Source of the DNA: an archaeon
GTDB taxonomy: Archaea > Nanobdellota > Nanobdellia > Woesearchaeales > GW2011-AR9
Assembly (NCBI GenBank): GCA_018696395.1
Contig: JABHQR010000023.1
Span: forward strand, 15,180-79,179
Reading direction: 5' to 3'
Length of the DNA: 64,000 nt
Below the pieces are notes generated by a model. It saw nothing but the letters and a program-made list of their open reading frames with translations. It was not told the DNA's origin and did not search any database. Positions 15,895 to 62,065 of this stretch are shown one piece after another (positions within the stretch are counted from its first letter, which is position 1; each line of letters opens with the position of its first letter). Both the position numbers and the translations under genes were made by a program.

Positions 15895-15895
15895 T

Positions 15896-17877: not shown

Positions 17878-17905
17878 TTTTTATTATATTTGATTATTTT
17901 AAAAT

Positions 17906-19195: not shown

Positions 19196-20516
19196 TTAAT
19201 CTTTGGTTAATTTTCTGCATTTCAGTCATACCATTCCCATAATTTATCTGGTAACTATTTGGATCTTTGATTAATCTGTAAGTGTCAATTGACCAAGCAT
19301 TAATCATCATTACTTTTTCTTTTTGTGTGTTGCCTAAACTTGCTGCAGAATCTAAATAAGCACAGAACTGTTCAGAAAAATCAAAGCCAAACATTCTTGT
19401 TCTTTTACCATTTTTACTTCTTTTTGTGGGAGAAAACATATAATTATAGCTGACTTGATAAGCCTTCACGAGATTATTAATTACTCTAATTGGCAGATTA
19501 TATTCTAAATCTTGATCTTTAAAATTAATATTTTTAATATAAAATTTAATCACATTAGGGTCCCAATTTTCCCAATCATTAACCGCTTGAGATAATTTAA
19601 TTAATTTAAGAATTTCTCTATCTTTATAGTGTTTAATGTTATGGTAATGAAATGCTCTTGCTTTATTTGGTTTATAATTTATGATATTATTTCCTTCAAA
19701 AACATTACAAGTTTGTTTAACAAAATAATCATTTTCAAATGCAATTACACTCCCAATAGCTTTCATAACATCATTTGAAGGAGAATTAAAACAATCAGAA
19801 CTTTCATAAGGAATAACTGTTTTTTTTATTAAATCGTTATTTTTTCTAATTAAAATAAGTCTCTTTTTGAAATCTTCATGAAAATTAAAAGAACGCTTTG
19901 ACAAACCAGAAGATAATTCATTAACTAAAGGAACAAAAGACACAAGATCTTTGAAAGAAAATAATGTTTTGAACAAATCTTTAGCAAGTTTTGGACAAGT
20001 AATTAATTCACTTAATTCTTCAAATGACATACTCAACATATAAAGGATATTATCATGATGATTTAAATCTTTGAAAAGTTCAGTTGCAGGACCAATAAAA
20101 TCAAGATTTAATTCTTTATAATCTTGGTTACCTTGACCAACATATTTAGCCATGCTGAGATAAATGCTAGTTACTGAATGAAGAAAACCAGTAGTTCTAG
20201 AATGAGGATAATTTTCAGATACAAAATCTTTAACCTGATTTTGAGATAAGATATGACATAATGCTTTGAAATCTTCCTTATGTGTGACTCTATTTCTGGA
20301 CCGCTCAAAATGAGATGCAATACAGGTAAGTGGAATATTTGGAATTTGATCAGAATCTAGATTATTAAAATTTGAATATTGAGAAATAACTTCATCATAT
20401 TTTGGTTTTAATTCTCTTCTTAATTTTTTCTTACTAGCAATAGGTACATTAATACGCCTGATTGAATATTTAAAACAATCGTTTAAGAAATCATCCAAAG
20501 AACTCATCTCACACAA
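19179..20516 (-). CDS. Array family member, 445 aa (likely true start at internal ATG 20507 giving ATGA overlap)
   Basis: C-terminus 'LGNTQKEKVMMINAWSIDTYRLIKDPNSY'. Met4 of the track ORF gives a 4-nt ATGA overlap with the upstream stop at 20504. Confidence 0.7.
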   Translation of the reverse strand: MCEMSSLDDFLNDCFKYSIRRINVPIASKKKLRRELKPKYDEVISQYSNFNNLDSDQIPNIPLTCIASHFERSRNRVTHKEDFKALCHILSQNQVKDFVSENYPHSRTTGFLHSVTSIYLSMAKYVGQGNQDYKELNLDFIGPATELFKDLNHHDNILYMLSMSFEELSELITCPKLAKDLFKTLFSFKDLVSFVPLVNELSSGLSKRSFNFHEDFKKRLILIRKNNDLIKKTVIPYESSDCFNSPSNDVMKAIGSVIAFENDYFVKQTCNVFEGNNIINYKPNKARAFHYHNIKHYKDREILKLIKLSQAVNDWENWDPNVIKFYIKNINFKDQDLEYNLPIRVINNLVKAYQVSYNYMFSPTKRSKNGKRTRMFGFDFSEQFCAYLDSAASLGNTQKEKVMMINAWSIDTYRLIKDPNSYQINYGNGMTEMQKINQRLIGVAV

Positions 20517-21466
20517 CCCCCAACAAGTTCAGAAGAACCAAACATCAATCTTAATTCATTATCATAAGCACCTGATTTAATCATACGTTGAACTTCTTTG
20601 CACCAGTAAGTCATACTTTGACGTTTTTCATCTAAAGTTTCTCCACAAGAAATGGCTTGGTTGAGATGTTGGAAAAAAATATCATCAGTAACCGGGTGAT
20701 ATCCTTGAGCATAATTATAAGCAAATTTGTAAGTTAATTCAATTAAAATCATTTCATCGTAGTTTAATTTATATTGTAAATCTTGATCAATAATCCTATT
20801 TTCATAATGTTGTAAAAAATGTTGTAACTGATCAAATGAATGGTGATCAGAATATTCCCCATCATTTTTAAAATTTGACTTTGGTTGCATAAACCCAGGA
20901 TATTTTGAGAGATATGAGGTCATATCATCTTTACTATTCCTTTCATATTTTATTTTAAGATTTTGAATTGAAACATCAAAATATTCATGAGAATGAAAAT
21001 TCTTCAAATAACTGAATAACTTTTTCAATAAAATATCATCTTCTTCTGAGATTAATCTTCTGGTAACATCACCTAGGGAGATACTATTCATTTTATTTTT
21101 AAGTATAGAATTTGTTTCAGCATAATTATCAAACATAGACATCATACTATAATCAGACAAATTATTTACAATATTAATATTTGTTAATACATTATTAGAA
21201 CCAATACCAACACATTCAGAGTAAAAATCACATAACTTAATAAATTCATTAATATCATTATTATTTTTATTACATTTCTTGATAACATTAGTTATATCAA
21301 AATAACGATAAACTCTCTCATCACTATCAGGGTCTGAATCAATAATATCAACAAGATTATAAAAAGAAGATCTGGCTGTTATTTCATCTAACCCTTCTTC
21401 TTTCCAATTTCTTAACATACCAAAGATAGGTAAGTTTGTGAAACTTCCACCCATTTTCATCTCCAA
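20504..21466 (-). CDS. Array family member, subfamily A (true start probably Met3 at 21460)
   Basis: C-terminus 'ISCGETLDEKRQSMTYWCKEVQRMIKSGAYDNELRLMFGSSELVGGCVR'. Also 'KYPGFMQPKSNFK'. Confidence 0.8.
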   Translation of the reverse strand: MEMKMGGSFTNLPIFGMLRNWKEEGLDEITARSSFYNLVDIIDSDPDSDERVYRYFDITNVIKKCNKNNNDINEFIKLCDFYSECVGIGSNNVLTNINIVNNLSDYSMMSMFDNYAETNSILKNKMNSISLGDVTRRLISEEDDILLKKLFSYLKNFHSHEYFDVSIQNLKIKYERNSKDDMTSYLSKYPGFMQPKSNFKNDGEYSDHHSFDQLQHFLQHYENRIIDQDLQYKLNYDEMILIELTYKFAYNYAQGYHPVTDDIFFQHLNQAISCGETLDEKRQSMTYWCKEVQRMIKSGAYDNELRLMFGSSELVGGCVR

Positions 21467-22416
21467 CCACCTCCAACAAGTTCAAAAGAACCAAACATTA
21501 ACCTAAGTTCATCATCATAAGCCCCAGACTTAATCATACGTTGAACTTCTTCACACCAAGAGGTCATACTCTTATGTTTATCTTCTAAAGTTTCTCCACA
21601 CGAGATAGATTCATTAAGGTATTGGAAGAACAACTTCTTTGAAGCGCCAAAACCAATCGGAAAAACAGAATCACCATATTCTTCTAAAACAGTACAATAG
21701 TTAGATACTAATTCTTCAGTTTCTTGTAATAAAAACATTTCATTATAATCAATTTCATACTTTAATTCTTCATCTTTTAACTCACGTAAATAATGATTAT
21801 TAAAATCAGTCAATTTGTTGAATTCATGATGTTCAATGAATCCAATTTCAGAATTAAATTTAGATCTTGGTTGCATGAATCCAGGTAATTTAATCAAATA
21901 ACTTTTAAAAATATCTTCAAATGAACTATTATTTTCTAAAAAAGAACATGACCTATTAAAAAGTGGATGATCTTTAAAATCTCTTAAGTAATCAAAAAGA
22001 TCAAGTAAAATATCACCTCTTTTTTCATTAGCTAAATTTTTAATTGTCCAAAATAAACTTCTATCCATTTCATCATTTTCTAAACACAAATGTGTTTTAG
22101 CATAATCATCAAATATATACATTAAATCATTAGATAAAAAAGAGTTTACCCTTGTAGCACCCATGATAAATTTAATTCCACTTATTTCAACACAAGAAGA
22201 ATAGAAACCACATAATTTCTTTATTTCATCATGATTTTTATTTTTAGTCACAGATTTCCTTAAGCTAAGAAAAATTTCACCAGGGACAACATTTTTTTCA
22301 TTCCTCCTAATATCTTTACATTTGGTAATAAAAGAATGATATGAATCTAACACTGAATTTAAAGTAGAAGTTCCTAACTCTTCGAAAGTTTCAATCATCA
22401 GATTTTCTAAATTCAT
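21457..22416 (-). CDS. Array family member, subfamily A
   Basis: C-terminus 'ISCGETLEDKHKSMTSWCEEVQRMIKSGAYDDELRLMFGSFELVGGGWR'. Also 'KLPGFMQPRSKFN'. Confidence 0.8.
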   Translation of the reverse strand: MNLENLMIETFEELGTSTLNSVLDSYHSFITKCKDIRRNEKNVVPGEIFLSLRKSVTKNKNHDEIKKLCGFYSSCVEISGIKFIMGATRVNSFLSNDLMYIFDDYAKTHLCLENDEMDRSLFWTIKNLANEKRGDILLDLFDYLRDFKDHPLFNRSCSFLENNSSFEDIFKSYLIKLPGFMQPRSKFNSEIGFIEHHEFNKLTDFNNHYLRELKDEELKYEIDYNEMFLLQETEELVSNYCTVLEEYGDSVFPIGFGASKKLFFQYLNESISCGETLEDKHKSMTSWCEEVQRMIKSGAYDDELRLMFGSFELVGGGWR

Positions 22417-23657
22417 TTTTCATTATCCCCACTTAAAATTTCAAAATAATCTAAAAACTGTTCTGGATTTTTTTTAATCAAACCATAAAGGTTATTTGAC
22501 CATTGAATTAATAATGATTTCTTTTCTTTAATTTTATTACCATAAGAGATTGTTTTATTCATTGCAGAAACAAAATAATTTTCAAGATCATCTTCAACAT
22601 CTCTCTGATAATTTAGGTCATAATCTGTTTTATCAGCTTCAGCTTCACCTAAGATTAATATTTGATGTGCCAAACAATAACTCTTAACTAATTGTTTAAT
22701 CTCATTTGATGTTAATGAATCTCTTAACACAGTATCACCAAAATTATATTTAAGATGACTAATATATTTTACTAAATCATCCCCCTCTAAACCTGTAGGA
22801 TAATTGTTCTGATTCAAAAATTTAATTTCTTTATTCCAATGTTTCTTTTCTAAATGAGTATACAAATAAACCACTTGATCAAAATTACTTTTACCAACAA
22901 ATTTCTTAAATGTTTTAACCCCACTTTGATGTTCAAGAAGTTTTTTTCTGAACTGAAAATATCTTTGACGAGGATTTTTTATTTCAGACCTATCCTTAGC
23001 AATTTTGGATAATTGGTCCATATTTCTAATAAAATAACTTATAATTACCCCATGAGATAATTTACATTCAGTTGAACCTAATAATTTAAACAAATCTTTA
23101 TCTTCATTTTCTAACAATTTCTTTGTTGGATAAGCACCCCTAGCATTCCAGATAGAAACACATGTATTAACCAATAAGTCTTTGTAATGAGGATTTTTTA
23201 ATCCAACAATATTATGCTTAATGTAGTGTGATTGTAAATAATCAATAAGACTTTCTTTATCTGTACCATATAATTTATCAGAATTACCATAATTAAATCT
23301 ATTAAATGTAAGATAAATTTTATCGAAAACCGGAGAAAGAGTATAACTATCCAATAAATCATGATATTTTTCAAACAGAATAGGTGAAGATGATTTGAAC
23401 ATTTCAAAAGAATTTAGTAACGCTTGCAGATCATTACTTTTCACACATAATCTTGATAAGCTAAGAGCCATTGGTCTTTCTGTACTAAATCTCCTAGCCA
23501 AGTTAGAATGGATTAAATTAACAACTGCAGCTTCTAATCCTTGACCCCTACTTTTCTCTAAAGCATTTTCAAAAGTATCAATAGTTAATTTGGAATTATA
23601 CCTAACATGCTCTCCAACCCAAGTTTTACAATAATTGATTTTATGTTCTAATCCCAT
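22413..23657 (-). CDS. Array family member, 414 aa
   Basis: C-terminus 'ISYGNKIKEKKSLLIQWSNNLYGLIKKNPEQF'. Confidence 0.7.
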   Translation of the reverse strand: MGLEHKINYCKTWVGEHVRYNSKLTIDTFENALEKSRGQGLEAAVVNLIHSNLARRFSTERPMALSLSRLCVKSNDLQALLNSFEMFKSSSPILFEKYHDLLDSYTLSPVFDKIYLTFNRFNYGNSDKLYGTDKESLIDYLQSHYIKHNIVGLKNPHYKDLLVNTCVSIWNARGAYPTKKLLENEDKDLFKLLGSTECKLSHGVIISYFIRNMDQLSKIAKDRSEIKNPRQRYFQFRKKLLEHQSGVKTFKKFVGKSNFDQVVYLYTHLEKKHWNKEIKFLNQNNYPTGLEGDDLVKYISHLKYNFGDTVLRDSLTSNEIKQLVKSYCLAHQILILGEAEADKTDYDLNYQRDVEDDLENYFVSAMNKTISYGNKIKEKKSLLIQWSNNLYGLIKKNPEQFLDYFEILSGDNEK

Positions 23658-23658
23658 T

Positions 23659-25269
23659 TTATTTTCCTAACATTGAATATAATATACCTTCATTAGATTG
23701 TTTTATAATTGAATCATAAACTTGATTACACCATTGATTAATGTTGCTTCTTTTCTCTGGAACATTATCACCTAATTCAATAACACTGTTTAAATTAGAA
23801 AAAAATGATTTAGAATAACCTCTTAAAAAATCAGTGTAATTTAGTACAGAATCAGAGTGAAATATCAAATTATTATATCCTAAACGATAGGTTTTGGTTA
23901 AATTACTAATATCTTTGATATTTAAGATTCTCCTGAACTCAATATCATTGATATTAGGAAATATTGTGTTAGAATAATCTAAAATAAGAGAATAATTATT
24001 TTCAACAAGATCTTGTTTATTTAAAGAATTTACAACACCTAAAAGGTTATCTGGAAAAAAACCTAAGTTATAATAACCATGCTTTGAATCGTGTAGAAAG
24101 ATAGTTAAAGATTCATCTACGTGTTTACTTCCAGGAATCTTATTAAGTACAAGAATAAGCTCCCTATAGTTCTTACGTAACTTTTTCATTTCCTCATCAG
24201 AAATAATCATTGATGATATTCTTAAATCATCTTTACTAGACCTTTCAGAATATTTATTATAATTCTTTTCAATTTGTTCAAACAGTAAATATAAAGTATC
24301 AACATTGTTCTTAGAAAAAACAATATTGTCTTGTAAGTAAGATTGTAAAAAATTATTTGTAGTTTCATTACAATAAGTTAACTTCTTTACTTTTTCTGCT
24401 GTACTCAATAAAGAGTGAATATTACGTGGATATTTAATTTTATCAGCAATTATTGTGCTTGAAGGATCAAATTCTTCCAAACTTCTTTGAATTGCTTTTT
24501 TATAATAATCAACTAACTGGTTCAAAGTTCGATTATCTGAACTAGTAAAGAAAGAGCCAGTTATATATTTATGAAGATCCTTTCTTCTAAGACCATCTAG
24601 AATAAAAATATTTTTTAGATAATAAGTAAAATTATCAAAATTAAAATCAGGTTCTTTAGCTAAATGATTTATCCTTCTTTTACCAAAAGAGTAAAGATAA
24701 TCCACATTAGAACTGTTAGAAAGCTCAGATAAGAGGTTAAACTTATTATCATCAAAATTATTTCTTAATTTTGTTAATTCTTTAGCAATCGCATTTACCT
24801 GAATATCAAAACTAAATTTGGAATATTTATTGATATTATCAAAAATGTCCAATACTGGAAAAACATATTCTGGCAAGTCAAGAACAAATTTTTCAATAAC
24901 ATCTAAACAGTAAGAGATACTTAAAGGATTTTGATCATTTGATGCAACATTTAACATGGTACTTGCCACCCTAGGCAAAAGGTCAGAATCTTCTTTAACA
25001 TTATCAATTAATTCTAAGAACCAAAAATTAAACCTTTCATCATTCAAGATATAATTTTCAATGTTGTCCATTAACTGAACATTAAATTTATTGTCATAAT
25101 TTTCTAAGCAATAATCAGTAAGTTGATTAAATGATTGTAAAGACTTTTTTCTTCTAAGACTAAATATGTCAAACCAAGAACTATTTTTATGATAGATTAA
25201 ACCTTTAGTTTCCTGTACTTTATCTTCAATTGTTTGTTTAGTTTTTATTCTTATCATGTTGCTTAACAA
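23659..25269 (-). CDS. Array family member, 536 aa
   Basis: C-terminus 'ELGDNVPEKRSNINQWCNQVYDSIIKQ'. Confidence 0.7.
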   Translation of the reverse strand: MLSNMIRIKTKQTIEDKVQETKGLIYHKNSSWFDIFSLRRKKSLQSFNQLTDYCLENYDNKFNVQLMDNIENYILNDERFNFWFLELIDNVKEDSDLLPRVASTMLNVASNDQNPLSISYCLDVIEKFVLDLPEYVFPVLDIFDNINKYSKFSFDIQVNAIAKELTKLRNNFDDNKFNLLSELSNSSNVDYLYSFGKRRINHLAKEPDFNFDNFTYYLKNIFILDGLRRKDLHKYITGSFFTSSDNRTLNQLVDYYKKAIQRSLEEFDPSSTIIADKIKYPRNIHSLLSTAEKVKKLTYCNETTNNFLQSYLQDNIVFSKNNVDTLYLLFEQIEKNYNKYSERSSKDDLRISSMIISDEEMKKLRKNYRELILVLNKIPGSKHVDESLTIFLHDSKHGYYNLGFFPDNLLGVVNSLNKQDLVENNYSLILDYSNTIFPNINDIEFRRILNIKDISNLTKTYRLGYNNLIFHSDSVLNYTDFLRGYSKSFFSNLNSVIELGDNVPEKRSNINQWCNQVYDSIIKQSNEGILYSMLGK

Positions 25270-26588
25270 TAACCCCTCATTATTAATCTAAAGTCATCGT
25301 ACTGACCTTCTTTGATAAGTTTAGAAGCGTTTGAAGCAAATTCTAACAACATTCTTTTCTGAACAGAAACATTTTCAGCATTAGATTTTATTTCATTAAA
25401 TATATTTGAATATAATTCGCCTAAACTCACGTCACCCTTATCTAAAAATGCTTTTTTATTTTCATTAATTGAAATGTAATTCTTACAAAGATCATTAAAA
25501 GTCATTAATTTAAAATATTCATCCACAGAAAGAGATTGAAATATGTCAATATCTTTAAACAAACTACAAGTCATATAATTAAAAGATTTTACTCTATCCC
25601 GTCTTATTAAACAGGTACAATTTATGGCTTTCCCCAACCATTCATTTAATTTAACCTTATTTTCTTGTAAAGAATTATCTTCACTGATTACTTTATTCAA
25701 TGAACTAGACAAATTTTTCCTAAATAAACCTTTATATTCAAAGGGCATATTCTTATAATAATCCAAAAAAAAGTTCAAATTGTTCATCTCTTCCAAGTTT
25801 AGATTTAATCTAAATTTCTTGTTTTCGATTAAATTATAGTTTTTAAAATAAGAGGTAATAGTCTCTAAATCAAAATATTCATCAAAGTACTTTTTATCAT
25901 TATTTTCTACATAATCTATGACATCGCTAAAGGTAGTAGGATTTACATCTACAGCATTAAGTATATCAAAAGTAAAATAGAATTTATCTTGTTTAGTTTG
26001 ATCTGAAAAGTAATCCAAAACTTTCTTAACAGCTTTTTCTTCATTAAAACTATCAAAAGACTTTGGAGAAATAAATTTTTGTGATTTAACAACTGCGTTT
26101 AATAAATCCTTATCATAATGACCTTTTGGATCATTAAATTCATTAATTATAGCTAATCCTCTATCCAAGTAAGATAAAGAATCGTCACAATCCATTGAAG
26201 TTAATAATATTCTGATAGCAGTATCAATATTATTATTTAAATAAACTGAACTAGCTTTGACCCCATATTTGTAAATAAAAGTATCAATTATTTTCACCAT
26301 ATAATCAGATTTAGAATCATTATCATCATGAACCAATTTCCATAAAGTGAAATTAGTTCTCCTTTTTGCAACATACATTAAATTCACATGATCATTGGAT
26401 TCTATATGTCTCATTAAATTATGATAACGAGTATTATACTCACAATCAAAACCACTCATAACCTTGTCGTGGCCATTTAAGATAATTTCTAAGTTGGAAT
26501 CACCTTCCAGTAATTCTGCAATTTTATCTCTTCTCTGTTTGATTAAAGAATCTAATTCTCGAATATCCATGACTTTATCATTTCCCAT
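25263..26588 (-). CDS. Array family member, 441 aa, subfamily C
   Basis: C-terminus 'NVSVQKRMLLEFASNASKLIKEGQYDDFRLIMRGYC'. Confidence 0.7.
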   Translation of the reverse strand: MGNDKVMDIRELDSLIKQRRDKIAELLEGDSNLEIILNGHDKVMSGFDCEYNTRYHNLMRHIESNDHVNLMYVAKRRTNFTLWKLVHDDNDSKSDYMVKIIDTFIYKYGVKASSVYLNNNIDTAIRILLTSMDCDDSLSYLDRGLAIINEFNDPKGHYDKDLLNAVVKSQKFISPKSFDSFNEEKAVKKVLDYFSDQTKQDKFYFTFDILNAVDVNPTTFSDVIDYVENNDKKYFDEYFDLETITSYFKNYNLIENKKFRLNLNLEEMNNLNFFLDYYKNMPFEYKGLFRKNLSSSLNKVISEDNSLQENKVKLNEWLGKAINCTCLIRRDRVKSFNYMTCSLFKDIDIFQSLSVDEYFKLMTFNDLCKNYISINENKKAFLDKGDVSLGELYSNIFNEIKSNAENVSVQKRMLLEFASNASKLIKEGQYDDFRLIMRGYC

Positions 26589-26589
26589 C

Positions 26590-27228
26590 TTAACAATAAC
26601 CCCCTATTGCTAATCGGAAATCATCATACTTACCTTCTTTAAACAATCTAGTTGCGTCAGAAGTGAACCCTAATAATATTCTTTTTTGGATAGAAACATC
26701 TTCAGATAATGATTTAACCTCTTTGAGAATACCACAACACAACTCTTTCAAACCATCATAATGTTTAATATCATAACAAGAGGAATAAAAAGAATTAGAA
26801 TCATTATTTCCAGAAAGATAAATATTACAAAGTCTTTCAAATTTAATTAAGTTTAAATAATCATTTTTACTTAATAAATTAAAAAGGTCTATTTCTTTAA
26901 TTAATTCACAAGCCATAATATGCAGATTATCGTCATCATCATAATCAACAAAATTTAAACAGTATTTTGTTTTACCAATCCAATCAATTAATTTATTTTT
27001 ATCTTTAATCAAATCTTCATCATCATCAAAACAATCATCTAACACCCGTTTAAATGAATATATTAAAGAATCTTCAATATTCCATTTTGTTAATTTTGAA
27101 AAATTGTTATTAAAATTAAAGATATAATTTAAATCGTTTACTTTTTCTTCTAAATTATAATCTTCTTTAAGTAAATACTCAACAGACCTTCTTTTTCTCA
27201 AGAAATTTCTACTCATCTTACTGTACAC
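26590..27228 (-). CDS. Array family member, short (212 aa) paralog corresponding to the C-terminal half of 25263..26588
   Basis: C-terminus 'DVSIQKRILLGFTSDATRLFKEGKYDDFRLAIGGYC' aligns with the neighbour. The preceding 'ELIKEIDLFNLLSKNDYLNLIKFERLCNIY' aligns with 'LFKDIDIFQSLSVDEYFKLMTFNDLCKNY'. Confidence 0.65.
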   Translation of the reverse strand: MYSKMSRNFLRKRRSVEYLLKEDYNLEEKVNDLNYIFNFNNNFSKLTKWNIEDSLIYSFKRVLDDCFDDDEDLIKDKNKLIDWIGKTKYCLNFVDYDDDDNLHIMACELIKEIDLFNLLSKNDYLNLIKFERLCNIYLSGNNDSNSFYSSCYDIKHYDGLKELCCGILKEVKSLSEDVSIQKRILLGFTSDATRLFKEGKYDDFRLAIGGYC

Positions 27229-29839
27229 CCCTCAATTCACTGATAAAAGAATGAATATCAAAGTGATCTTCACGTACTAATTGGGAGATTCTTTTACAAT
27301 AATTAATCACACTATGTTTCTGAACTTCAATAGATTCATCTTTGTAATAATCTACAACTTCGTCCAGAGAAGAAATGAAAGATTGTTTAAGTTCTTTATT
27401 TAAGAATTCTCTTGTTTTAACAGAATTATGGCTTGGATTTGACTCTGGTTTTTGTAATAAAGTATTTTTTAAAAGATTATAAGTTCCAGTCAAAAGTTCA
27501 ATTTGAGAGATTTTAAGTGTTGGTTTAATCACATTGGACCAATCTTCAAAAGAGAAAATATATTCATTTACTAAACCAAAGTTTTCTTCACTTAATGAAA
27601 AATTGTTTTCAAATACATTAAAAAAGTCATCCAAACTCTTACCAATTCCTTTATCAAATCCAAGAACATAATTATTAACCTTAGGTAAGATATTATTATT
27701 GAAATCTTCTCGTGAAGCTAATTTTCTTAACCTATTTTCTAATACTGCAAACGAACTTAAATCACCAGTTCTAGTAAAATAACCAACTGTATGTTTAAAA
27801 GTTTTAATTAAATCACCATTATTGTCCGTCAAATCAAGAAGATCACAAATATTTGTGATAAGATATTCCTTATCATTAACAACTCTTCTTTCATCATAAA
27901 CAAATTCAGGGAGAAGTCTTCTATCTCCGACAACTTGAAAGAAAATTTTTCTAAAAGTATTCATTAAATGATAAAGCTTACTTTTATCTTTATCTCTATT
28001 ACTAACCTGATTAACTTGATTTAATTCTATATCTTCATCAGTTTCAATATTATTTAACTTTTCAATGACTCTTGGCATGGACAAATATTCTTCTAAAAAA
28101 GCAGGGATATTTTTATTGTATTTATGAGTAAAAAAATGGATTGCATTATTAACATATTTTAAATCTAATTCATTATTGTTATGTTTTTTATCAAGATAGG
28201 TTAATAGGTAATTTAAATTCAGACTATTTTCCTTAAATCCAGGTATAAAATAATTTACTTTCTCTAAAACATCATTAAAATCAGATCTTTCAGATAATTT
28301 TTCTAACAATTCTTTTAAAGATACAAATTTATGAAAATCCATTTCAAAACCACTATAATTCTGCAAATTCCAACCATCAAAAACATGTCTGAAAGTTGTA
28401 ACTAAACCAACATGATTATCAGTTAGATCAAAAAGATTACAAACACTACCTATTAAATATTCTTTACAATTAACTTTTTCACCATGTTCAGAATCTCTAT
28501 TTGAAACTAAAAGTTCTCTGTTTGGCATTGATAAAATATTACCAAAACAATTTATTAAATAAAATAAATTAGTTTTTATAGGATCATTTCTAATTACATG
28601 ATATCTCCCATTTTCACCCCTATCTTTATCTGCTTCAAAATGATTTAATTTATCAATAATTTCAGGGTTTGAGAAAAACAAATTTAAATCACAATCTTTT
28701 CCTTCAAGGTAACTATGGCGTTGGAACCTAACCATGTCATTAACATAATTTACATCTAAATTATTTATCCTATTGCTTTCATAAATAATAGACAAAAGTT
28801 TATTAAAATTGGATGTACCAAAAGAAGACACATTATAATTAATTCTTAAATTTTTAATAATTACATCAAAATCAGACATATCAAAATTATCCCCATCAAC
28901 ATAATCTCCGATAACCTCATTGAAGAAATCAAGTTTTTGAAGATGTTTTTCAATACCTTCTTCTGATGTTTCTACTCGAAAAGAGATTGAACTATTATAA
29001 AGCAAATCAGACAGATTTGTAGGGTTAGAAGTTAAAGGAATAAAGTTCAAAAAACCATGAGTTAACATACCTTTTATTTGAGTTTTCTTTTCATCAGAAA
29101 CATTTTCAAGTTCAAGATTAGAGATTAAGACGTATTGATTTAACATTTGTCCTAAGCTAACACTCAAATTGTCTTCCAAAGTAGAATTATCAATTAATTT
29201 ACATACATATTTTTCTAAAGTAATTCTTGGTTTTAAACCATAGCAATTAAGGGGTAATTTTCTAATTTTATTGAAAGTATGAAATAACCTTTCAAAAGAA
29301 ACATGATAATCAGAGATATTTTTAAAATAATTTACTACAAAATCTTGAGAAAAATAGTTAGTTAATCCGGTTGGTAAAGTTTCACCAGGTTCACTAACAG
29401 TACAATTTACAAAAGAGTTTTCTACCCCCTCTATAAATTTATAAAATAAATCATTTTCATTTTCACTATAATTGAAATAATGCTTAATCAATTCATTTCC
29501 TAAAACACAAGCTTGAAAATCGCCATATTCTTCAGAAAATAATCTTATGTATTTCTTATAATAATTTAATTTTGTTGTTGACCTACTTCCAACTGAATCT
29601 AAAATATCCAAAGTACTCTGCACACATTCATCAATAGCAACACCATAATTTCTTGGAAGATCCTCGGTTAGAATTTCACTTACAATCTTAAACTCGTCTT
29701 CAGTATAACCTTCAAAGATCCTACCAAAATTAGATTTAACATACTCTTGATACTCCCCTCTAACTTCTCCTTCTGAAGTACTTATGAGCAAGTACTGTTC
29801 TAAATTAGATTTAGCTCTAATTAGTTCATTATCAACCAT
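27218..29839 (-). CDS. Array family member, giant (873 aa), subfamily D, with an internal ~130-aa tandem module duplication
   Basis: Shares N-terminus 'NELIRAKSNLEQYLLISTSEGEVRGEYQEYV' and C-terminus 'KHSVINYCKRISQLVREDHFDIHSFISELRGVQ' with 29841..31943. The internal repeat is '...KEYLIGSVCNLFDLTDNHVGLVTTFRHV...' versus '...KEYLITNICDLLDLTDNNGDLIKTFKHT...'. Confidence 0.75.
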   Translation of the reverse strand: MVDNELIRAKSNLEQYLLISTSEGEVRGEYQEYVKSNFGRIFEGYTEDEFKIVSEILTEDLPRNYGVAIDECVQSTLDILDSVGSRSTTKLNYYKKYIRLFSEEYGDFQACVLGNELIKHYFNYSENENDLFYKFIEGVENSFVNCTVSEPGETLPTGLTNYFSQDFVVNYFKNISDYHVSFERLFHTFNKIRKLPLNCYGLKPRITLEKYVCKLIDNSTLEDNLSVSLGQMLNQYVLISNLELENVSDEKKTQIKGMLTHGFLNFIPLTSNPTNLSDLLYNSSISFRVETSEEGIEKHLQKLDFFNEVIGDYVDGDNFDMSDFDVIIKNLRINYNVSSFGTSNFNKLLSIIYESNRINNLDVNYVNDMVRFQRHSYLEGKDCDLNLFFSNPEIIDKLNHFEADKDRGENGRYHVIRNDPIKTNLFYLINCFGNILSMPNRELLVSNRDSEHGEKVNCKEYLIGSVCNLFDLTDNHVGLVTTFRHVFDGWNLQNYSGFEMDFHKFVSLKELLEKLSERSDFNDVLEKVNYFIPGFKENSLNLNYLLTYLDKKHNNNELDLKYVNNAIHFFTHKYNKNIPAFLEEYLSMPRVIEKLNNIETDEDIELNQVNQVSNRDKDKSKLYHLMNTFRKIFFQVVGDRRLLPEFVYDERRVVNDKEYLITNICDLLDLTDNNGDLIKTFKHTVGYFTRTGDLSSFAVLENRLRKLASREDFNNNILPKVNNYVLGFDKGIGKSLDDFFNVFENNFSLSEENFGLVNEYIFSFEDWSNVIKPTLKISQIELLTGTYNLLKNTLLQKPESNPSHNSVKTREFLNKELKQSFISSLDEVVDYYKDESIEVQKHSVINYCKRISQLVREDHFDIHSFISELRGVQ

Positions 29840-29840
29840 C

Positions 29841-31925
29841 TTACTGCACCCCCTCTTGACTTACAAAAGATAGAACGTCAAACTTATTTTCTTTTACTAA
29901 CCTAGAGATTTCATTACAATAATTAATTACTTCATGTTTTTTCACATTGATAGATTGATCACCACACAATGCGATAACTTCATCCAAAGATTTTTGAAAA
30001 GATCCTTTTAATTTACCTTTAAGAATCTCTCTTTTTCTTTTTACTTGATTAGCATGAGATATAGTTCTTGTAGGTTCTTCTTCTTGCAACATAGAATTTT
30101 CTAAAAGGCTATATGTTTCAACCATAACTCTTCTTTGATTTAAATTGAAATCATATATTAGGTCCGAATTCCAACCCAGATAAATCCCCATAAAATCAAA
30201 AAATTCGTCTAAGTTAAAATCATTTACAGATTTTGATCTTTTTAATATTTCAAAGAAAGATTTAATATTAAAACGATTATCTTTATTATTATTAATAATA
30301 AATTCATTTGTTTTAGGTAAAATCTCTGAATGATAATTACTTCTCTTAGATAAACTTAACAACTGATCTTTTAGAACTTGAAATTCACTTAAATGAAAAA
30401 GATTTCCATCTTGATTATAATCATAAATTATTTTATTAAAATTCTTAATCATTCTAAAAGAAGAATTGCTAAATAGATCAAATGTTTCTACCAAATCACA
30501 AACACAACTAACAAAATATTCTTTTATATCAAGTTCACCATTAGTAGAATCACTAATTAAAGAATTACGTTCTGGAATAGAAAATATACTCTCAAATGTT
30601 CTCAACAGATGGAATAAATGAGTGTATTTTTGATCAATCACTTCTGATTTTGAAGAGTTATCAAGTTCATACAATTTTAAAACTTTAATTACATTAGGCC
30701 TAGAAAGATAATTTTCTAACTTATTATCCCTTACCTTACTATCAAAAAAACCATGATATTTATGATAATTAAAATTAATTGAATCTTCTAAATAATTAAT
30801 GTTGATAGACCCATTAACGATTCCTTCATCAATAAAATTTAATGCTGCCCTAAAATTACCAAAATCATGAGTAGAACCATATGAAAAACACCTACCCAGA
30901 TTCCAAGTAAAGTTATTATAATCTAAATCTTTTGGCAAATTTTCAATAACATTATCAAATAAATTAACTGTGTATAAGAGATTTTTAGTTTTATTTTCAT
31001 CCTCGTTTAATTTTTTTAAGGAAAAATAAAATTTATTAAAGATAGAATTTAAATGATGGGGTGATTTATTCTTTGAAAGAGCTTTCAATAAACTTTTAGT
31101 TAAAAGTGATCTTAAATTAACAGATACAGGGGCCCCATCTAATTCATTTGAGGGCAATGAAAAATTCTCAGGTAAAGAAGCTGCCTGTTTATATTGTATC
31201 AATAACCCTTTAATTGACCTATATAATTGCCCATTTGACATCAATGAACCACTTTCTTTAATGAATTCACAAACATAATCTCCCATCACTTCCTTAGAGT
31301 TCACTCCATAGAAATCTTCTGGTATATTCATGAGATTAGAAAAGATAAGAAAAGAATCTATAAAACTTAAACGATATTTCCCACAATCAACTAAATATTT
31401 TCTTACATCTTTTTGAGAAAAATAATGTGTAGCCCCTAAAAGAAGATCCATTTTACTTAAGGGAGAATTTATTATCCTATCATTTTGAATATATTTAAAT
31501 TCATCTACAAATTCAGGAAAAATATCAGTATTAATGTAATGCTTAATCAATTCATTTCCTTGAATTAAAATATCATGACTTAAATTATCTTCAGTAAATA
31601 TTTTTGTATAAGTTTTTAATTTTTCTAGCTGATGGACATTAGGAATTCCTTTAATCAAATCAATGACTTCAAAAGTTGAAATCACACATTCATCAATAGC
31701 CGCAATACCATTAAGTTTAGGAAAATTTTCTGTAAAAAGATTTCCAACCACATTTAATTGTTCAATAGAATATCCTTCAAAGATCCTATTAAAGTTACTT
31801 CCAACATACTCTTGATACTTATCTCTAACCTCTCCCTCTGAAGTACAGATAAGCAAGTACTGTTCTAAATTAGATTTAGCTCTGATTAGTTCATTATTAA
31901 CTTTAGATAATTCTCTGCCAGGCAT
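29841..31925 (-). CDS. Array family member (about 694 aa from ATG 31925; track lists a GTG start at 31943), subfamily D, first gene of the array
   Basis: C-terminus 'KHEVINYCNEISRLVKENKFDVLSFVSQEGVQ'. One copy of the 'KEYFVSCVCDLVETFD' module. An ATG at 31925 is preceded by SD GGGAG and an upstream TATA-like box. Confidence 0.75.
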   Translation of the reverse strand: MPGRELSKVNNELIRAKSNLEQYLLICTSEGEVRDKYQEYVGSNFNRIFEGYSIEQLNVVGNLFTENFPKLNGIAAIDECVISTFEVIDLIKGIPNVHQLEKLKTYTKIFTEDNLSHDILIQGNELIKHYINTDIFPEFVDEFKYIQNDRIINSPLSKMDLLLGATHYFSQKDVRKYLVDCGKYRLSFIDSFLIFSNLMNIPEDFYGVNSKEVMGDYVCEFIKESGSLMSNGQLYRSIKGLLIQYKQAASLPENFSLPSNELDGAPVSVNLRSLLTKSLLKALSKNKSPHHLNSIFNKFYFSLKKLNEDENKTKNLLYTVNLFDNVIENLPKDLDYNNFTWNLGRCFSYGSTHDFGNFRAALNFIDEGIVNGSININYLEDSINFNYHKYHGFFDSKVRDNKLENYLSRPNVIKVLKLYELDNSSKSEVIDQKYTHLFHLLRTFESIFSIPERNSLISDSTNGELDIKEYFVSCVCDLVETFDLFSNSSFRMIKNFNKIIYDYNQDGNLFHLSEFQVLKDQLLSLSKRSNYHSEILPKTNEFIINNNKDNRFNIKSFFEILKRSKSVNDFNLDEFFDFMGIYLGWNSDLIYDFNLNQRRVMVETYSLLENSMLQEEEPTRTISHANQVKRKREILKGKLKGSFQKSLDEVIALCGDQSINVKKHEVINYCNEISRLVKENKFDVLSFVSQEGVQ

Positions 31926-31970
31926 ATAATATCTCCCTAGCACCCCTATTTACCACTAATAAGGTGTGTT

Positions 31971-32043: not shown

Positions 32044-35000
32044 TTAAACTTTATCGAAACTAGCTGTAAACTCTTCTTTCTTAACTTTAAAGTCTTCTTT
32101 AAATCCATGTTTCTTAGCTGCATCAGTAAAAGCAATAACTAACTTCTCTGCTCCTACTTTTTCAGAGATATCTTTTTCAAAAGGATCTAAAGATTTTTTC
32201 ATAGCTTCTGAACATTTCAAATGAAGAATAATAGAATCTGTCTTTTCTAACCCAGCATTCTTTCTTAAAGTTTGGACTTTCCTCATAACTTCACGAGCAA
32301 ACCCTTCTGCTTCCAATTCTTCACTACGCTCAGTGTTCAAATAAACTAACGCCCCTTTAGTTTCAGATTCAATGTAAAGTTCAGGAACTTCTCTTTCCAC
32401 AACTAACATGTCTTGAGTTAATCTGATTTCTTCTTTCTTGCTTTCAATTTCAATTTCAATGTTAAAATATCCATCTTTACCTAAACTATTAACAATATCT
32501 TCAGCAGAAGTTGAATTGACAACTTTCATAATGTTAGGAGATTTTGCTCCAAAACTTTTACCTATCATGGAAGCTTCTGGTTTAACTGAAACTTTTACAC
32601 CTGGTAAAGATTCAAGTACACTAATTTCTTTAGCATTAATGTGTTTCTTCAATAAATTCCTTAACATTTCTGCAGATTTAATCATATTATCTTTTTTACT
32701 TACTACAACTAATTCTTTAATTGGCCACCTTACACCTAACCTAGCTTTTTCTCTTGCGTTAAGAGCTGCTTGACTTAATCTCTTAAATCCTTCAATATTT
32801 TGTTCCAATTCTAAATCAATTTTATTTTCATCAAATTTAGGGAAAGAGAAATGACTAAGGCTTTCTTCTTTTAAGCCAAACTCTTCTTTAATGTTTAAGT
32901 AAATAGCTTCAGTAATAAAAGGTGAAATAATACTGAACACTTTCAAAAAGTCAAGTAAAACTTTTGCAATGGTATAAGCACAAAGTTCTTTATCTTCTTT
33001 ACTTCCTATTGAACTTTTTTCACGAACCAACTGAACATAAGTCCGACTTAATTCCAGATATAATTCTTCTAAAGGTTGAATAGTAGAATCAAGTTCATAG
33101 GTTTCAAACAATTTATCAACTGTTTTAAGAGTAGAATTTAATTTAGAAACAATATATTTCTCTTCTAAACTCATTAAATTATTCATTAACTTTTCATCAA
33201 GTTTAAATGGATTCAGTTCATTTTCTTTAGATAAATTGATCAATAGTTTATGTAAGTTCCATAAAATTTGTACTTGTCTTGCTTTTGTTTTACATTCGTC
33301 CCAACTGAAATTAATATCCTGACCAGCATTATTTTGGCACATATAATACCTTAACACATCAACACCATGCTTATCGATCAATTCATAAGGTGAAATAATA
33401 TTACCTATACTTTTACTCATTTTTTTACCAGCAATATCATTAAGCATCCCATAAACGTAAACGTTCTTGAAAGATTTCTTATCAAATCTTAAATAAGAAC
33501 AGATCGATAACATACTAAACCATAACCTAGTTTGTTCTTTAGCTTCCAAAATTGCATCTGCCGGAAACCATTCTTCAATTAATTTTGGATCATTATCAAG
33601 ACAGTTCCAACTGGCAGTACCCGCATCTACCCAAACATCAATAATGTCAGGTACACGTAACATTGATTTTTTACTTTTACATTTCGGACAATCAAATTTG
33701 ACATCATCAATCCATGGTATGTGAAGATTTTCTGGAACTTTTGCCCCATTTGATTTAATATCTTCTCTAGAACCTATTACTTTAATTTCTTTACAATCTT
33801 TATTTCCACATTTCCAGATGGGTAATGGTGTTCCCCAAAACCTTTGACGAGAGATAGAATTATCTTTAAGATTACCCACCCAAGATTCATAAGAATTTAA
33901 TGCAGTTTCTGGAACCCAAAGGACTTCTGAATTTTCTTCAATAATTTTTTGTTTAATATCTTCAATTTTAAAGAACCATTGGTACGTAATTCTGAACACG
34001 ACAGGTTTGTGACATCTCCAACAGTGAGGATATTCATGTTCAACATCAGTAATTTCTATCAAAGCACCTTCATCTTTCAAAGCTTCAGTAAATTTAGGAT
34101 CATCAACTTTTGCTCTCAACCCAGAAAATTTACCCATACTTACAGGAAAATAACCATTTTCTTGTAAGTTGTTAAATGGTGGAATGTTGTAAGGTTTACA
34201 AGCTTCCTGATCTTCAGGACCACAACCAGGCGCAGTATGAACTAACCCAGAACCAGCAGTAGTATCAACATATTGTTCATTAAGAATGACTGTATGTACA
34301 TTAGGATGATCTTTTTTTAGTTCAGCATATTTTGAAATAAAATTATTGAATGGATGAGTATACCCCCAACCCTCCATGTGATCACCTTTGAACTCTTCTA
34401 GAACTTTCATTTTTTTATTTGCAACAGCACCACATACAATTCCAGCAAGAGCTTTTGATAAGTACCAAATTTCTTCATTACTTTTTTTACCTTCTTTACT
34501 TTCATCCCAAACTTTAACTTTCAAATAATCAAGTTTAGGATTTACCATCACACCTAAATTGTAAGGGATTGTCCAGGGAGTAGTTGTCCAAACAATTACA
34601 TGTTCATTATTTTGACAATCTTCTTTAGAATTAGTACCTTTTTTACTGTTTAACTTGAACTTCACAAAGATAGATTTGTCAGTAACAGTTTCATACTCAC
34701 ATTCATGTTTAGCTAACGCAGTTTCACAGTTTTGGCACCAAGTAAGAACTTTTTCACCATAATATAATCTGTCTTTTTCATAAGCAGTTTTGATAAGTTG
34801 CCATTCTCCTTCCATAAATTCAGATTTTATTGGCATGTAAGGATTAGATAAATCAAAAGTTGTTCCAATACGAACTAAATCTTCAGTCATAATTTTTGCC
34901 ATGTCAGTAGAAAATTTGATACATTCATTGATGAATTTGTCAAGACCAAAAGATTCAATATCTTCTTTAGTTTCAAGTTTATGTTTTGCCATTACTTTAT

Positions 35001-35271
35001 GTGCGGTAGGCAAACCATGCATATCAAACCCATTTCTGTCCCAGACATTACGTCCTTTACTTCTTTGATATCTTAACACCATATCTTTTAATGCATAATT
35101 CCAAGCATGTGCGAGATGAAATTTCCCAGAAGTGTAAGGAGGACCATCTAAAAAGTAAAATTTTTTCCCAGATTTATTCTTTTCACGAAGTTTCTCAATA
35201 ATTTTATTCTTTTTCCAATATGCGATGATATCTTCTTCAGTCTTTTGGTGATGATATGTTTCAAATCTCAT
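32044..35271 (-). CDS. ileS: Isoleucyl-tRNA synthetase, 1075 aa
   Basis: Class I HIGH motif 'SGKFHLAHAWNYA' and KMSKS motif 'GKKMSKSIGN'. Also 'WTTTPWTIP' and a CP1 editing-domain-like middle region. The size and C-terminal extension fit archaeal/eukaryotic-type IleRS. A TATA-like TTTTAAAATAA about 25-35 nt upstream of the ATG suggests a leaderless transcript. Confidence 0.9.
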   Translation of the reverse strand: MRFETYHHQKTEEDIIAYWKKNKIIEKLREKNKSGKKFYFLDGPPYTSGKFHLAHAWNYALKDMVLRYQRSKGRNVWDRNGFDMHGLPTAHKVMAKHKLETKEDIESFGLDKFINECIKFSTDMAKIMTEDLVRIGTTFDLSNPYMPIKSEFMEGEWQLIKTAYEKDRLYYGEKVLTWCQNCETALAKHECEYETVTDKSIFVKFKLNSKKGTNSKEDCQNNEHVIVWTTTPWTIPYNLGVMVNPKLDYLKVKVWDESKEGKKSNEEIWYLSKALAGIVCGAVANKKMKVLEEFKGDHMEGWGYTHPFNNFISKYAELKKDHPNVHTVILNEQYVDTTAGSGLVHTAPGCGPEDQEACKPYNIPPFNNLQENGYFPVSMGKFSGLRAKVDDPKFTEALKDEGALIEITDVEHEYPHCWRCHKPVVFRITYQWFFKIEDIKQKIIEENSEVLWVPETALNSYESWVGNLKDNSISRQRFWGTPLPIWKCGNKDCKEIKVIGSREDIKSNGAKVPENLHIPWIDDVKFDCPKCKSKKSMLRVPDIIDVWVDAGTASWNCLDNDPKLIEEWFPADAILEAKEQTRLWFSMLSICSYLRFDKKSFKNVYVYGMLNDIAGKKMSKSIGNIISPYELIDKHGVDVLRYYMCQNNAGQDINFSWDECKTKARQVQILWNLHKLLINLSKENELNPFKLDEKLMNNLMSLEEKYIVSKLNSTLKTVDKLFETYELDSTIQPLEELYLELSRTYVQLVREKSSIGSKEDKELCAYTIAKVLLDFLKVFSIISPFITEAIYLNIKEEFGLKEESLSHFSFPKFDENKIDLELEQNIEGFKRLSQAALNAREKARLGVRWPIKELVVVSKKDNMIKSAEMLRNLLKKHINAKEISVLESLPGVKVSVKPEASMIGKSFGAKSPNIMKVVNSTSAEDIVNSLGKDGYFNIEIEIESKKEEIRLTQDMLVVEREVPELYIESETKGALVYLNTERSEELEAEGFAREVMRKVQTLRKNAGLEKTDSIILHLKCSEAMKKSLDPFEKDISEKVGAEKLVIAFTDAAKKHGFKEDFKVKKEEFTASFDKV

Positions 35272-35783: not shown

Positions 35784-36644
35784 TCATTCTTTCAGTAAAA
35801 TGACATTACCTCTGCCACGTTTAACTTTTTCAATTTTACCTTTATGTTCTAATTCAGTAAGAATTAAACTTATTTTTGATTCAGACAAGTCCATCATTTC
35901 TTTCCTTAACTGTTTTTGAGTAATTCGACCATCATTTTTCTTGACAATTTCTAATGCTCTTTTCAAATATCCAGGTTGTTCATTTTGTTCCAACTCTTTC
36001 CCTATAGAAGCTAGTTTCTCTTCACGGGAAGTTTTTTTATGAGGTTTAATTTTTTCTTCATTTTTAGTTTGGTCAACCCCAAAATGTAATCCTAAATTGA
36101 TTTCTTGTTTTATTCCCTCAACCTTATCTTTTTTCTTACCACTATATTTTTTCTTGGCAATAACAACTCTTCCTAAAGCGATCAAGATTATTCCTACTGT
36201 TGCGAGGTATGCCCAAGTTCTGTTTTTATTAATACCATCTTCATCACTGGTTAACTCATCGCCATAAATTGATTCTAAATCATCCCATAACTCATCTTCT
36301 TCATCCATGCTTGGAAATAGAAATATGTCAAACAAAAAAGTAACATTACCAGTAGAAGTGACACTTAAAGTTTCTGTTGCTGAAAGATCACCTTTACTTG
36401 CTGTCAAAATGTAAGAACCTTCTGGCACTACAAATTTATAAGTTCCATCCTGAGAGAGGTATTGTTGGCTTGGAGAAGTGTTAATTTCAAGTATCACATT
36501 ATCAACAACATCCAAATTATAATCATAAATAGTACCTTCAATAGATAGGGATTCAACAAAGCTAGAACTAGTAAAAAACAATGTTATTAAAATTACAATA
36601 AAATAAATGAATTTATAGTTATTGTTCATACATAAACCCCTCAT
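35784..36644 (-). CDS. Membrane-anchored winged-helix (HTH) protein, archaeal type
   Basis: N-terminal signal/TM segment 'FIYFIVILITLFFTSSSF' and a second TM 'WAYLATVGIILIALGRVVIA'. The C-terminus 'ITQKQLRKEMMDLSESKISLILTELEHKGKIEKVKRGRGNVILL' is a typical wHTH. Confidence 0.55.
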   Translation of the reverse strand: MRGLCMNNNYKFIYFIVILITLFFTSSSFVESLSIEGTIYDYNLDVVDNVILEINTSPSQQYLSQDGTYKFVVPEGSYILTASKGDLSATETLSVTSTGNVTFLFDIFLFPSMDEEDELWDDLESIYGDELTSDEDGINKNRTWAYLATVGIILIALGRVVIAKKKYSGKKKDKVEGIKQEINLGLHFGVDQTKNEEKIKPHKKTSREEKLASIGKELEQNEQPGYLKRALEIVKKNDGRITQKQLRKEMMDLSESKISLILTELEHKGKIEKVKRGRGNVILLKE

Positions 36645-61989: not shown

Positions 61990-62065
61990 TTATTTTAACT
62001 TTTTGTAAATCTTATTTTTAATAATAATAATAATAATAAATTAAAACTTAACTTTCTAACATAAA

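Follow-up and report, generated by a model that had tools for sequence, protein, structure and literature searches.

How does a long run of related hypothetical genes arise in an archaeal genome, and what keeps it there? The question is raised by four genes at positions 25263–31943 of a 64,000-nucleotide stretch of contig JABHQR010000023.1 (assembly GCA_018696395.1; Woesearchaeales, GW2011-AR9), which is called the window here. The original prediction, made from the letters of this DNA, had seen in these genes part of an array that evolves by local tandem duplication, truncation and duplication of internal modules. We find that the array members form a functional system under selection, not simply an array in neutral birth and decay. 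The prediction had missed two ties of the family, one to a shared C-terminal domain and the other to an AAA+ ATPase and a VWA protein encoded in the same run of genes. In our opinion, the array probably represents the amplified and diversified third subunits, or clients, of this motor–adaptor pair.

On the minus strand, from position 31943 down to 118, the window has 24 consecutive genes, namely 22 paralogs of one family, the gene of an AAA_5 ATPase and that of a VWA protein. Four more paralogs lie past the left edge on the same JGI contig, which brings the array to 26 members, with 17 before the ATPase/VWA pair and 9 after it. All 22 window members, and the four beyond the edge, carry an all-alpha C-terminal domain of about 110 aa with the signature Y..I.D..L...L....I..L..Y.L ... 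FF..LNE.IS.G....EK...L.EW..V..LIK. The best-kept positions in 126 distinct domains are Lys (85%), Phe (84%), Asn (80%), Tyr (72%) and Gly (71%), together with an aromatic residue that is mostly Trp. Neither the domain nor the family members have a match in Pfam, NCBIfam, PADLOC or PHROGs. A profile search of 1.84 billion representative proteins recovered the domain in only 98 clusters, 22 of which are the window's own proteins, and its position is C-terminal in every case. Comparison of the domain profile with PDB sequences gave noise only, the best match being a de novo designed protein (E 7e-4). A word-indexed protein search with the domain alignment returned nothing, its sensitivity being limited by the tool, while the same kind of search with gene product 22413 (members are named by their first position) returned a single relative, on a 1.4-kb contig. 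The domain family is previously undescribed, and no description of such arrays was found in the literature searched.

An AlphaFold2 model of member 13946, based on 54 family sequences, has 16 helices and no strands, with a predicted local distance difference test score (pLDDT) of 82.8 and a predicted template modelling score of 0.79; the confident all-alpha model covers this one member. The C-terminal domain is its best-defined part (pLDDT 90–98). A crude test finds a hydrophobic segment in none of the family members, and by this test the proteins are therefore soluble. The domain can also be multiplied within a single protein, as in a 741-aa relative from Logan DRR337555 (L031:1212-3437) with five tandem copies.

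The ATPase, the VWA protein and a gene with the domain co-occur in six loci, the window and five others. In a second organism, org2 (ENA ERZ27250158, JGI Ga0233437), whose isoleucyl-tRNA synthetase (IleRS) is 69–71% identical to that of the window, the order is IleRS, four small genes, AAA_5 (48% identical), VWA (42%) and then 19 consecutive family genes. Species T (Logan SRR24302413) has the same start of the locus, with at least seven more members on another contig, and in a Woesearchaeota metagenome-assembled genome (MAG) from NCBI the pair is followed by six members. An 88.8-kb archaeal contig from JGI has AAA_5, a 109-aa gene, a VWA homolog (P0105) and then about nine genes, of which P0088 is the only array gene confirmed with the domain. 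The remaining locus is bacterial: on a contig of 4.16 Mb and 50% GC, the pair is followed by a single 223-aa domain protein (E 7.6e-15), and this single-copy cassette (ERZ21862645 ctg38549c) sits among ordinary housekeeping and signalling genes. The array sizes seen are 1, 6, about 9–10, 19 and 26 genes, with at least 2 to 19 genes in the archaeal relatives of the window, expansion being found only in the archaeal loci. Given the single-copy bacterial cassette beside the archaeal arrays, the basic unit consists of three genes, and the arrays are the amplified third gene. The layout is that of a three-gene module with conserved linkage, formed by an AAA+ motor (NorQ/CobS-like), a VWA adaptor (NorD/CobT-like) and a protein with the C-terminal domain. 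In three species the locus lies downstream of IleRS. The window's IleRS is 50–70% identical to that of Woesearchaeota and Nanoarchaeota MAGs, which places the organism among the DPANN archaea, and in the GTDB set of Woesearchaeota relatives within this identity range none of 17 loci has an array beside IleRS, several of them having little downstream DNA.

The two partner proteins belong to a recognizable class. The ATPase (8812–10059, minus strand) is of MoxR type, with a match to Pfam AAA_5 (E 4.7e-8), and its best solved relative is NorQ (E 0.005; 9qhd). Its Walker A motif is intact (GEPGNGKS), and at the Walker B position (FLNEE, about 9727–9744, aa 106–111) it has Asn for the expected Asp, with which the motor may be slow or regulatory. 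The VWA adaptor (6276–8705, minus strand, 809 aa) has a C-terminal VWA domain (E 2.8e-8) with the metal ion-dependent adhesion site (MIDAS) motif DGSGST, and its best solved relative is NorD (E 2e-4; 9qhd, in which chains A and G are the relatives of the two proteins of the pair). The ATPase also matches the phage 'CobS-like' family phrog_249 and the N-terminal region of the VWA protein the phage 'CobT-like' family phrog_5298, both weakly (E 4e-8 and 4e-6). Acidic and Gly-rich linkers connect this N-terminal region to the VWA domain. Overlapping the phrog_5298 match there is the sequence HEAAHILEGSF (about 8349–8375, aa 111–119), which resembles a zinc-peptidase motif, a peptidase function being only a lead. 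In all eight VWA homologs retrieved from 5.8 billion proteins, the bacterial one included, HE[AI]AHILEGSF, EDxRxExN and the MIDAS residues are invariant, the MIDAS-type motifs being DxSGST, NRDG and ADG. Scans with Pfam, NCBIfam and PADLOC found no domain in this protein besides VWA, and tblastn against phage records gave no match. The VWA protein also contains two low-complexity insertions (about aa 135–190 and 262–300), which are common only to a 68%-identical relative and absent in the other six homologs.

Motor, adaptor and third subunit form a known layout, that of the CobSTN chelatase (bioRxiv 10.64898/2026.07.21.739949) and of the MoxR–vWA ternary systems (PMC7159879). The third subunit of CobSTN sits on the adaptor, opposite to the motor ring (bioRxiv 10.64898/2026.07.21.739949). 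For MoxR–vWA systems it is thought that a client peptide is captured by the vWA domain and the client then released by the ATPase in an altered conformation (PMC7159879). Because motor–adaptor pairs of this class work in this manner, the conserved domain may by analogy be the handle that docks each paralog on the VWA/AAA+ machine, as CobN, NorB/C and Rubisco dock with their pairs. The adaptor would bind the third protein, and the motor would work on it. Each paralog has a fast-diverging, soluble, helical N-terminal part and the conserved all-alpha domain, and the four genes of the opening question are the IleRS-proximal end of a single run of 26 co-directional paralogs, which would form one operon. 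The variable N-terminal parts would provide diversified specificities, as clients or as substrate receptors, probably for interaction with host or virus; several roles may be considered for them, including those of sensors and exported effectors. One might go further and suppose that this lineage of DPANN archaea has expanded the third subunit of an AAA+/VWA machine, possibly with an HExxH peptidase, to as many as 26 rapidly diversifying receptors. Through its C-terminal handle, each of these would deliver its own host or viral target to a single engine that remodels or degrades proteins with ATP, and the array would then parallel, in a prokaryote, the gene arrays of F-box-like proteins or immune receptors. 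This extension is tentative, and we would sooner expect it to be wrong than right.

Several points weigh against the third-subunit reading. By Foldseek, the fold of the domain matches nothing solved or viral, the top non-significant matches being designed helical repeat proteins (E >0.1). The Asn in Walker B is present in both ATPase orthologs examined, including that of the second species. The HExxH region of the VWA protein could not be assigned to a known metallopeptidase family, with no Pfam match even at E 10, and its AlphaFold2 model is unusable (pLDDT 40). In bacteria, ATPase homologs with 42–43% identity lie between dnaB and a miaB-like gene and have neither a VWA gene nor a family gene in their vicinity; the ATPase is therefore not exclusive to the array system. 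These lone homologs are full-length (L036:543-1823, L037:1354-2685), on contigs of 44–45% GC, and the miaB-like gene is of the radical-SAM kind.

Among described systems, the closest concept is that of the VMAP-type MoxR–vWA ternary systems (Kaur, Burroughs, Iyer, Aravind, eLife 2020; PMC7159879), but the array does not belong to them. In both cases the genes of a MoxR-class ATPase and of a vWA protein accompany that of a third protein, in which a conserved C-terminal domain is combined with a rapidly diverging all-alpha region, and here too the vWA protein adjoining the ATPase has a MIDAS. However, VMAP-C is an alpha+beta domain with about seven strands (PMC7159879), whereas the array domain is all-alpha and has no library match; scans of the VWA and family proteins show no enzymatic effector or effector-associated (EAD) domains; the third component is one gene in VMAP and up to 26 tandem genes here; and VMAP systems are found in multicellular bacteria, whereas ours is found in DPANN archaea and one bacterium. 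The CobS–CobT–CobN complex and the phage CobS/CobT-like pairs share with the array the AAA_5 motor, an acidic-linker adaptor with C-terminal VWA domain and a third subunit on the adaptor, but neither the annotated part of the window nor the related loci showed a CobN/BchH-like gene, and the third component here is a family of small helical proteins. NorQ/NorD and CbbQ/CbbO include the best solved relatives of the array pair and work through MIDAS-mediated client capture, after which the AAA+ ring remodels the client. The similarity to them is marginal, though (E 0.005 and 2e-4), genes for nitric-oxide reductase or Rubisco do not adjoin the array, and the array ATPase is about 150 aa longer and without the CbbQ_C domain. 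The array system is accordingly neither a chelatase, as far as the annotated part of the window and the related loci show, nor a NorQ/NorD or CbbQ/CbbO system. A more distant parallel is offered by the F-box or BTB/MATH arrays of eukaryotes, which are multigene families of substrate receptors under birth-and-death evolution. They have in common with our array the tandem arrangement, lineage-specific gain and loss, a hypervariable binding region and a conserved docking domain, docking being presumed in our case; unlike it, they serve ubiquitin ligases and have no sequence or fold relation to the array family. As to diversity-generating retroelements, the variable part is here at the N-terminus, unlike that of their typical targets. 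No repeat resembling their template and variable repeats was seen in 1–36000, and no reverse transcriptase among about 30 window open reading frames (ORFs) scanned, which do not include all the small ones.

The four genes themselves show how such an array may grow. The one nearest to IleRS, 29841–31943 (minus strand, as are all those that follow; 700 aa if translation begins at the first start codon; public gene calls give 694 aa), has its C-terminal domain at about 29856–30218 and a single copy of a module of about 200 aa at about 30210–30815. Its sister, 27218–29839 (873 aa, C-terminal domain at about 27239–27583), contains an internal tandem duplication, with copy 1 at 28235–28765 (aa 359–535, containing KEYLIGSVCNLFDLTDN) and copy 2 at 27656–28177 (aa 555–728, containing KEYLITNICDLLDLTDN). 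In an all-against-all BLASTP of the array proteins with an E-value limit of 1e-3, the two align from end to end (32% over 588 aa, E 1.6e-60; 33% over 349 aa, E 7e-39), and they are sisters at 99–100% bootstrap, so that the shared N- and C-termini seen by the original prediction hold. It was also right in placing a module twice in 27218 and once in 29841, but the unit is about 180–198 aa instead of about 130. Comparison of the two halves of 27218 gives 37% identity between the copies (E 3e-25), the motif KEYLI recurs at residues 459 and 657 with a period of 198 aa, and residues 363–578 of 29841 align to both copies; self-comparison of the DNA agrees with this picture of internal duplication. 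The short gene 26590–27228 (212 aa, 208 aa in public calls; C-terminal domain at about 26602–26949) is intact. It is indeed a partial equivalent of its neighbour 25263–26588 (441 aa, domain at about 25278–25604), with 38–42% identity, E 3e-31 and a sister bootstrap of 100%, and it corresponds to the C-terminal 40% (residues 264–441 only). The neighbour has a second, weaker domain copy upstream, at about 25635–25871 (independent E 4e-6).

None of these four genes has a BLAST match, at the same E limit, among the other 18 members of the window, to which they are joined only through the shared C-terminal domain. In leave-out searches with a hidden Markov model, 25263 is recovered at E 3e-10, 29841 at E 3.5e-8 and 26590 at E 0.01, while 27218 is linked only via its sister. 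The idea that degenerate copies of the C-terminal domain make up the module of about 198 aa in 27218, or the N-terminal regions in general, found no support by hhalign. The same applies to homology of N-terminal regions between subfamilies, for which the best comparison was that of subfamily A with a quartet of org2 (P 2e-4, probability 45%).

Between the four genes and the ATPase, 10258–25269 contains a further thirteen members of the family, each of which carries the C-terminal domain; 15896 and subfamily A (13946, 14917, 20504 and 21457) are among them. Five more follow the pair at 118–6270, where the array runs past the window's left edge. Here the notion that adjacent genes are each other's closest relatives breaks down as a general rule. 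Subfamily A is monophyletic, as proposed (96–98% bootstrap, 32–45% identity), but its adjacent members are not sisters. The best match of 13946 is 21457, 6.5 kb distant; in rooted neighbour-joining of full-length proteins no internal grouping exceeds 65% bootstrap and sisterhood of adjacent pairs reaches about 15%, so the branching order within the subfamily is not resolvable. For the 26-gene array, the best match lies next door in 6 of 26 cases against 2.0 expected by permutation (P 0.03). The mean rank distance shows no reduction (P 0.15); in the second species the rank-distance test is clearer (mean 3.0 vs 6.3, P 0.001). The proposed non-adjacent pair, 5197 and 15896, is real (35% over 298 aa, E 3e-43), but it is not the only one, given the relations among 3893, 22413 and 1441. 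A loose block pattern can be seen over 1441–23657, with A pairs 13946/14917 and 20504/21457, a B type in 15896 and 5197 and a third type in 22413, 3893 and 1441, and it may be the remnant of multi-gene segmental duplications. The off-window 464- and 454-aa genes form a further adjacent sister pair (30% identity over 462 aa).

How old are these duplications? Every paralog pair in the window has a synonymous divergence (pS) of 0.4–0.7, which is saturated, and at most 45% protein identity, so there are no recent duplicates, of low synonymous divergence, among them. The internal repeat of 27218 has pS of about 0.45 and is therefore an old duplication. The exception to saturation lies at the 5' ends of 27218 and 29841, in the first 45 codons of each (29702–29836 and 31767–31901, respectively), with 84% protein identity, 86% DNA identity over 135 nt and pS 0.30; outside this 5' tract the two genes have pS of about 0.5 and protein identity of about 32%. 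Two origins would fit this tract, conservation of an N-terminal peptide and an old event of gene conversion. Nonsynonymous divergence (pN) is close to pS in the N-terminal regions. In the last 40 or so codons, in contrast, pN is about 0.1 versus about 0.45 elsewhere, with pS saturated throughout, and this combination indicates purifying selection on the tail and not recent conversion. The array proteins diverge very fast, with purifying selection on the C-terminal 40 residues or so.

Turnover is seen when species are compared. Between species T and the array designated O, identity is 92.5% for IleRS, 75% for the ATPase and 71% for the VWA protein, and falls to 44–58% for syntenic array orthologs. 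On the side of gain, T923 and T3079 both match O10972, and T7238 and a 579-aa gene are without counterpart in O; on the side of loss, three O genes are missing in T, the arrays being otherwise syntenic. In sample DRR337555, a relative carries the 12810 type twice, in neighbouring genes with 42% and 28% identity. Between the window and org2 (IleRS 69%) no full-length orthologs are left, and only the C-terminal domain aligns, at 22–34% identity. Two other assemblies, JGI 3300025644 and ENA ERZ508549, are 100% identical to the window over 22.6 and 19.5 kb; the former may be the window's own sample, and at least one of the two comes from another sample. Other database variants differ by one or two residues. 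The array has grown by whole-gene tandem duplication and by duplication of an internal module, and genes have been lost between species; shortening is probably due to loss of N-terminal parts, the direction of change being only presumed. Of the "actively birthing and decaying" family of the original prediction, duplication, gain and loss stand between species, while the recent duplicates, pseudogenes and strain-level copy-number variation are not seen here. Copy number differs between related genomes, as is typical of birth-and-death families, but no decaying copies were found: the array shows no gene fragments or pseudogenes, and even 26590 keeps the full C-terminal domain. Tandem birth and death is real between species and not demonstrably ongoing in this genome. 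The original prediction is correct in most of its details, the exceptions being the length of the repeat and the adjacency in subfamily A, and its interpretation holds in part.

Could these patterns be explained without any system? Tandem copies might simply drift to pseudogenes, with the ATPase/VWA pair in the array by accident. Such neutral birth and decay would account for the adjacent sister pairs, the shortened copy and the internal duplication, for N-terminal pN close to pS and for gene content that varies between related species, but we think that it is quite unlikely, because the pair and the domain recur together in six loci, down to the single-copy bacterial cassette, and the C-terminal tail is strongly constrained. 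In addition, the 26 ORFs are without exception intact and lie close together, most of their starts are preceded by Shine-Dalgarno-like motifs, and the two other assemblies, one from a different sample, are identical. A second explanation of this kind is concerted evolution, in which gene conversion, rather than the age of duplication, keeps neighbours similar. The 135-nt tract of 27218 and 29841, with its lowered pS, and the 3' ends of subfamily A, with up to 81% DNA identity, are what it would predict. The conserved 3' ends, however, have pS of 0.42–0.71, as saturated as elsewhere, with pN about 0.1, which denotes constraint, and the window's C-terminal domains resemble one another no more than they resemble the domains found in other genomes (0.204 vs 0.206). 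We regard conversion as very improbable as the general cause.

Two other explanations accept a system and assign it a different task. Secreted effector families usually combine a conserved terminus with a variable body, and the array could be an effector repertoire, its N-terminal parts being delivered to a host, its C-terminal domain serving as export or chaperone-recognition signal and the AAA+/VWA pair preparing or loading them. This layout fits, as do a lineage of presumed episymbionts, the extreme divergence between close species and an expansion confined to archaeal loci. We nevertheless consider it unlikely, since no secretion-system genes, signal peptides or membrane segments were seen in or beside the array and the bacterial single-copy version stands among housekeeping and signalling genes. 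Of similarly low probability, in our view, is an immune-type repertoire of VMAP-like sensors, in which the helical regions would sense invader proteins and the motor–adaptor pair, perhaps with an HExxH peptidase, would transduce or execute the response. It would share the three-part logic of VMAP systems, for which a diverging all-alpha region has been proposed as sensor (PMC7159879), and it agrees with fast evolution and turnover in copy number. Yet VMAP-C is mixed alpha+beta while the domain here is all-alpha, neither the VWA protein nor the family members have a fused effector domain, PADLOC gives no match and no phage or plasmid link was found.

As for the genomic setting, intergenic gaps in the array are between -17 and +5 nt at most junctions and none exceeds 200 nt. 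At junctions throughout 118–31943, stop and start codons overlap and Shine-Dalgarno-like GGAGGTG/AGAGGTGAT motifs fall within the last codons of the upstream gene; this location explains the recurrent C-terminal tails (EVMV., ..GG.., ..RG..). Such motifs precede most array starts, and all 26 ORFs are intact. The co-directional, tight layout with coupled starts suggests that the array is one translationally coupled operon. Its GC content is 25–28%, that of the remaining window sequence 27–32%. Scanning the window for Rfam families and tRNAs gave nothing, and a scan for sigma-70 promoters and terminators gave no excess over shuffles, its consensus being bacterial and the organism archaeal. No phage match was obtained and synteny beside IleRS is conserved in three species, so the locus does not qualify as a mobile element or virus. 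At the left end, the four off-window members (464, 454, 329 and 438 aa; L042:11328-16371), all four with the domain, are followed by peptidase M3 and mutL. At the other end lies IleRS (32044–35271, minus strand), the synteny anchor, and upstream of it a DUF7343 winged-helix membrane protein (35784–36644, minus strand). The latter is also syntenic in related species (L038:759-1709, L041:1751-2677), and therefore the entire neighbourhood is conserved, beyond the array alone. Elsewhere in the window, a canonical CbbQ/NorQ-type ATPase (61075–61989, plus strand; AAA_5 + CbbQ_C), separate from that of the array, precedes an ORF (62060–64000, plus strand) that encodes 647 aa or more and runs off the right edge; these two may be another motor–adaptor pair, unrelated to the array family. 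A ThyX homolog of 528 aa (52286–53872, minus strand) has two Thy1 stretches and seems to be a thymidylate synthase that was duplicated in tandem or fused.

The genomes of DPANN archaea are very small, and to our knowledge their interactions with hosts and viruses are very little understood. About 37 kb spent on one fast-evolving family in so small a genome suggests something central to the lifestyle of the organism. In the array, birth-and-death evolution of an archaeal operon can be seen cleanly in a natural case, with IleRS 92% identical where array orthologs are only 44–58% identical. Besides this, an undescribed domain family is now tied to a motor–adaptor pair, and its single-copy bacterial version provides a simpler background for study. 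A block of hypothetical proteins is in this way turned into a testable hypothesis, according to which the conserved domain would dock on the VWA MIDAS site while the variable parts would bind partners.

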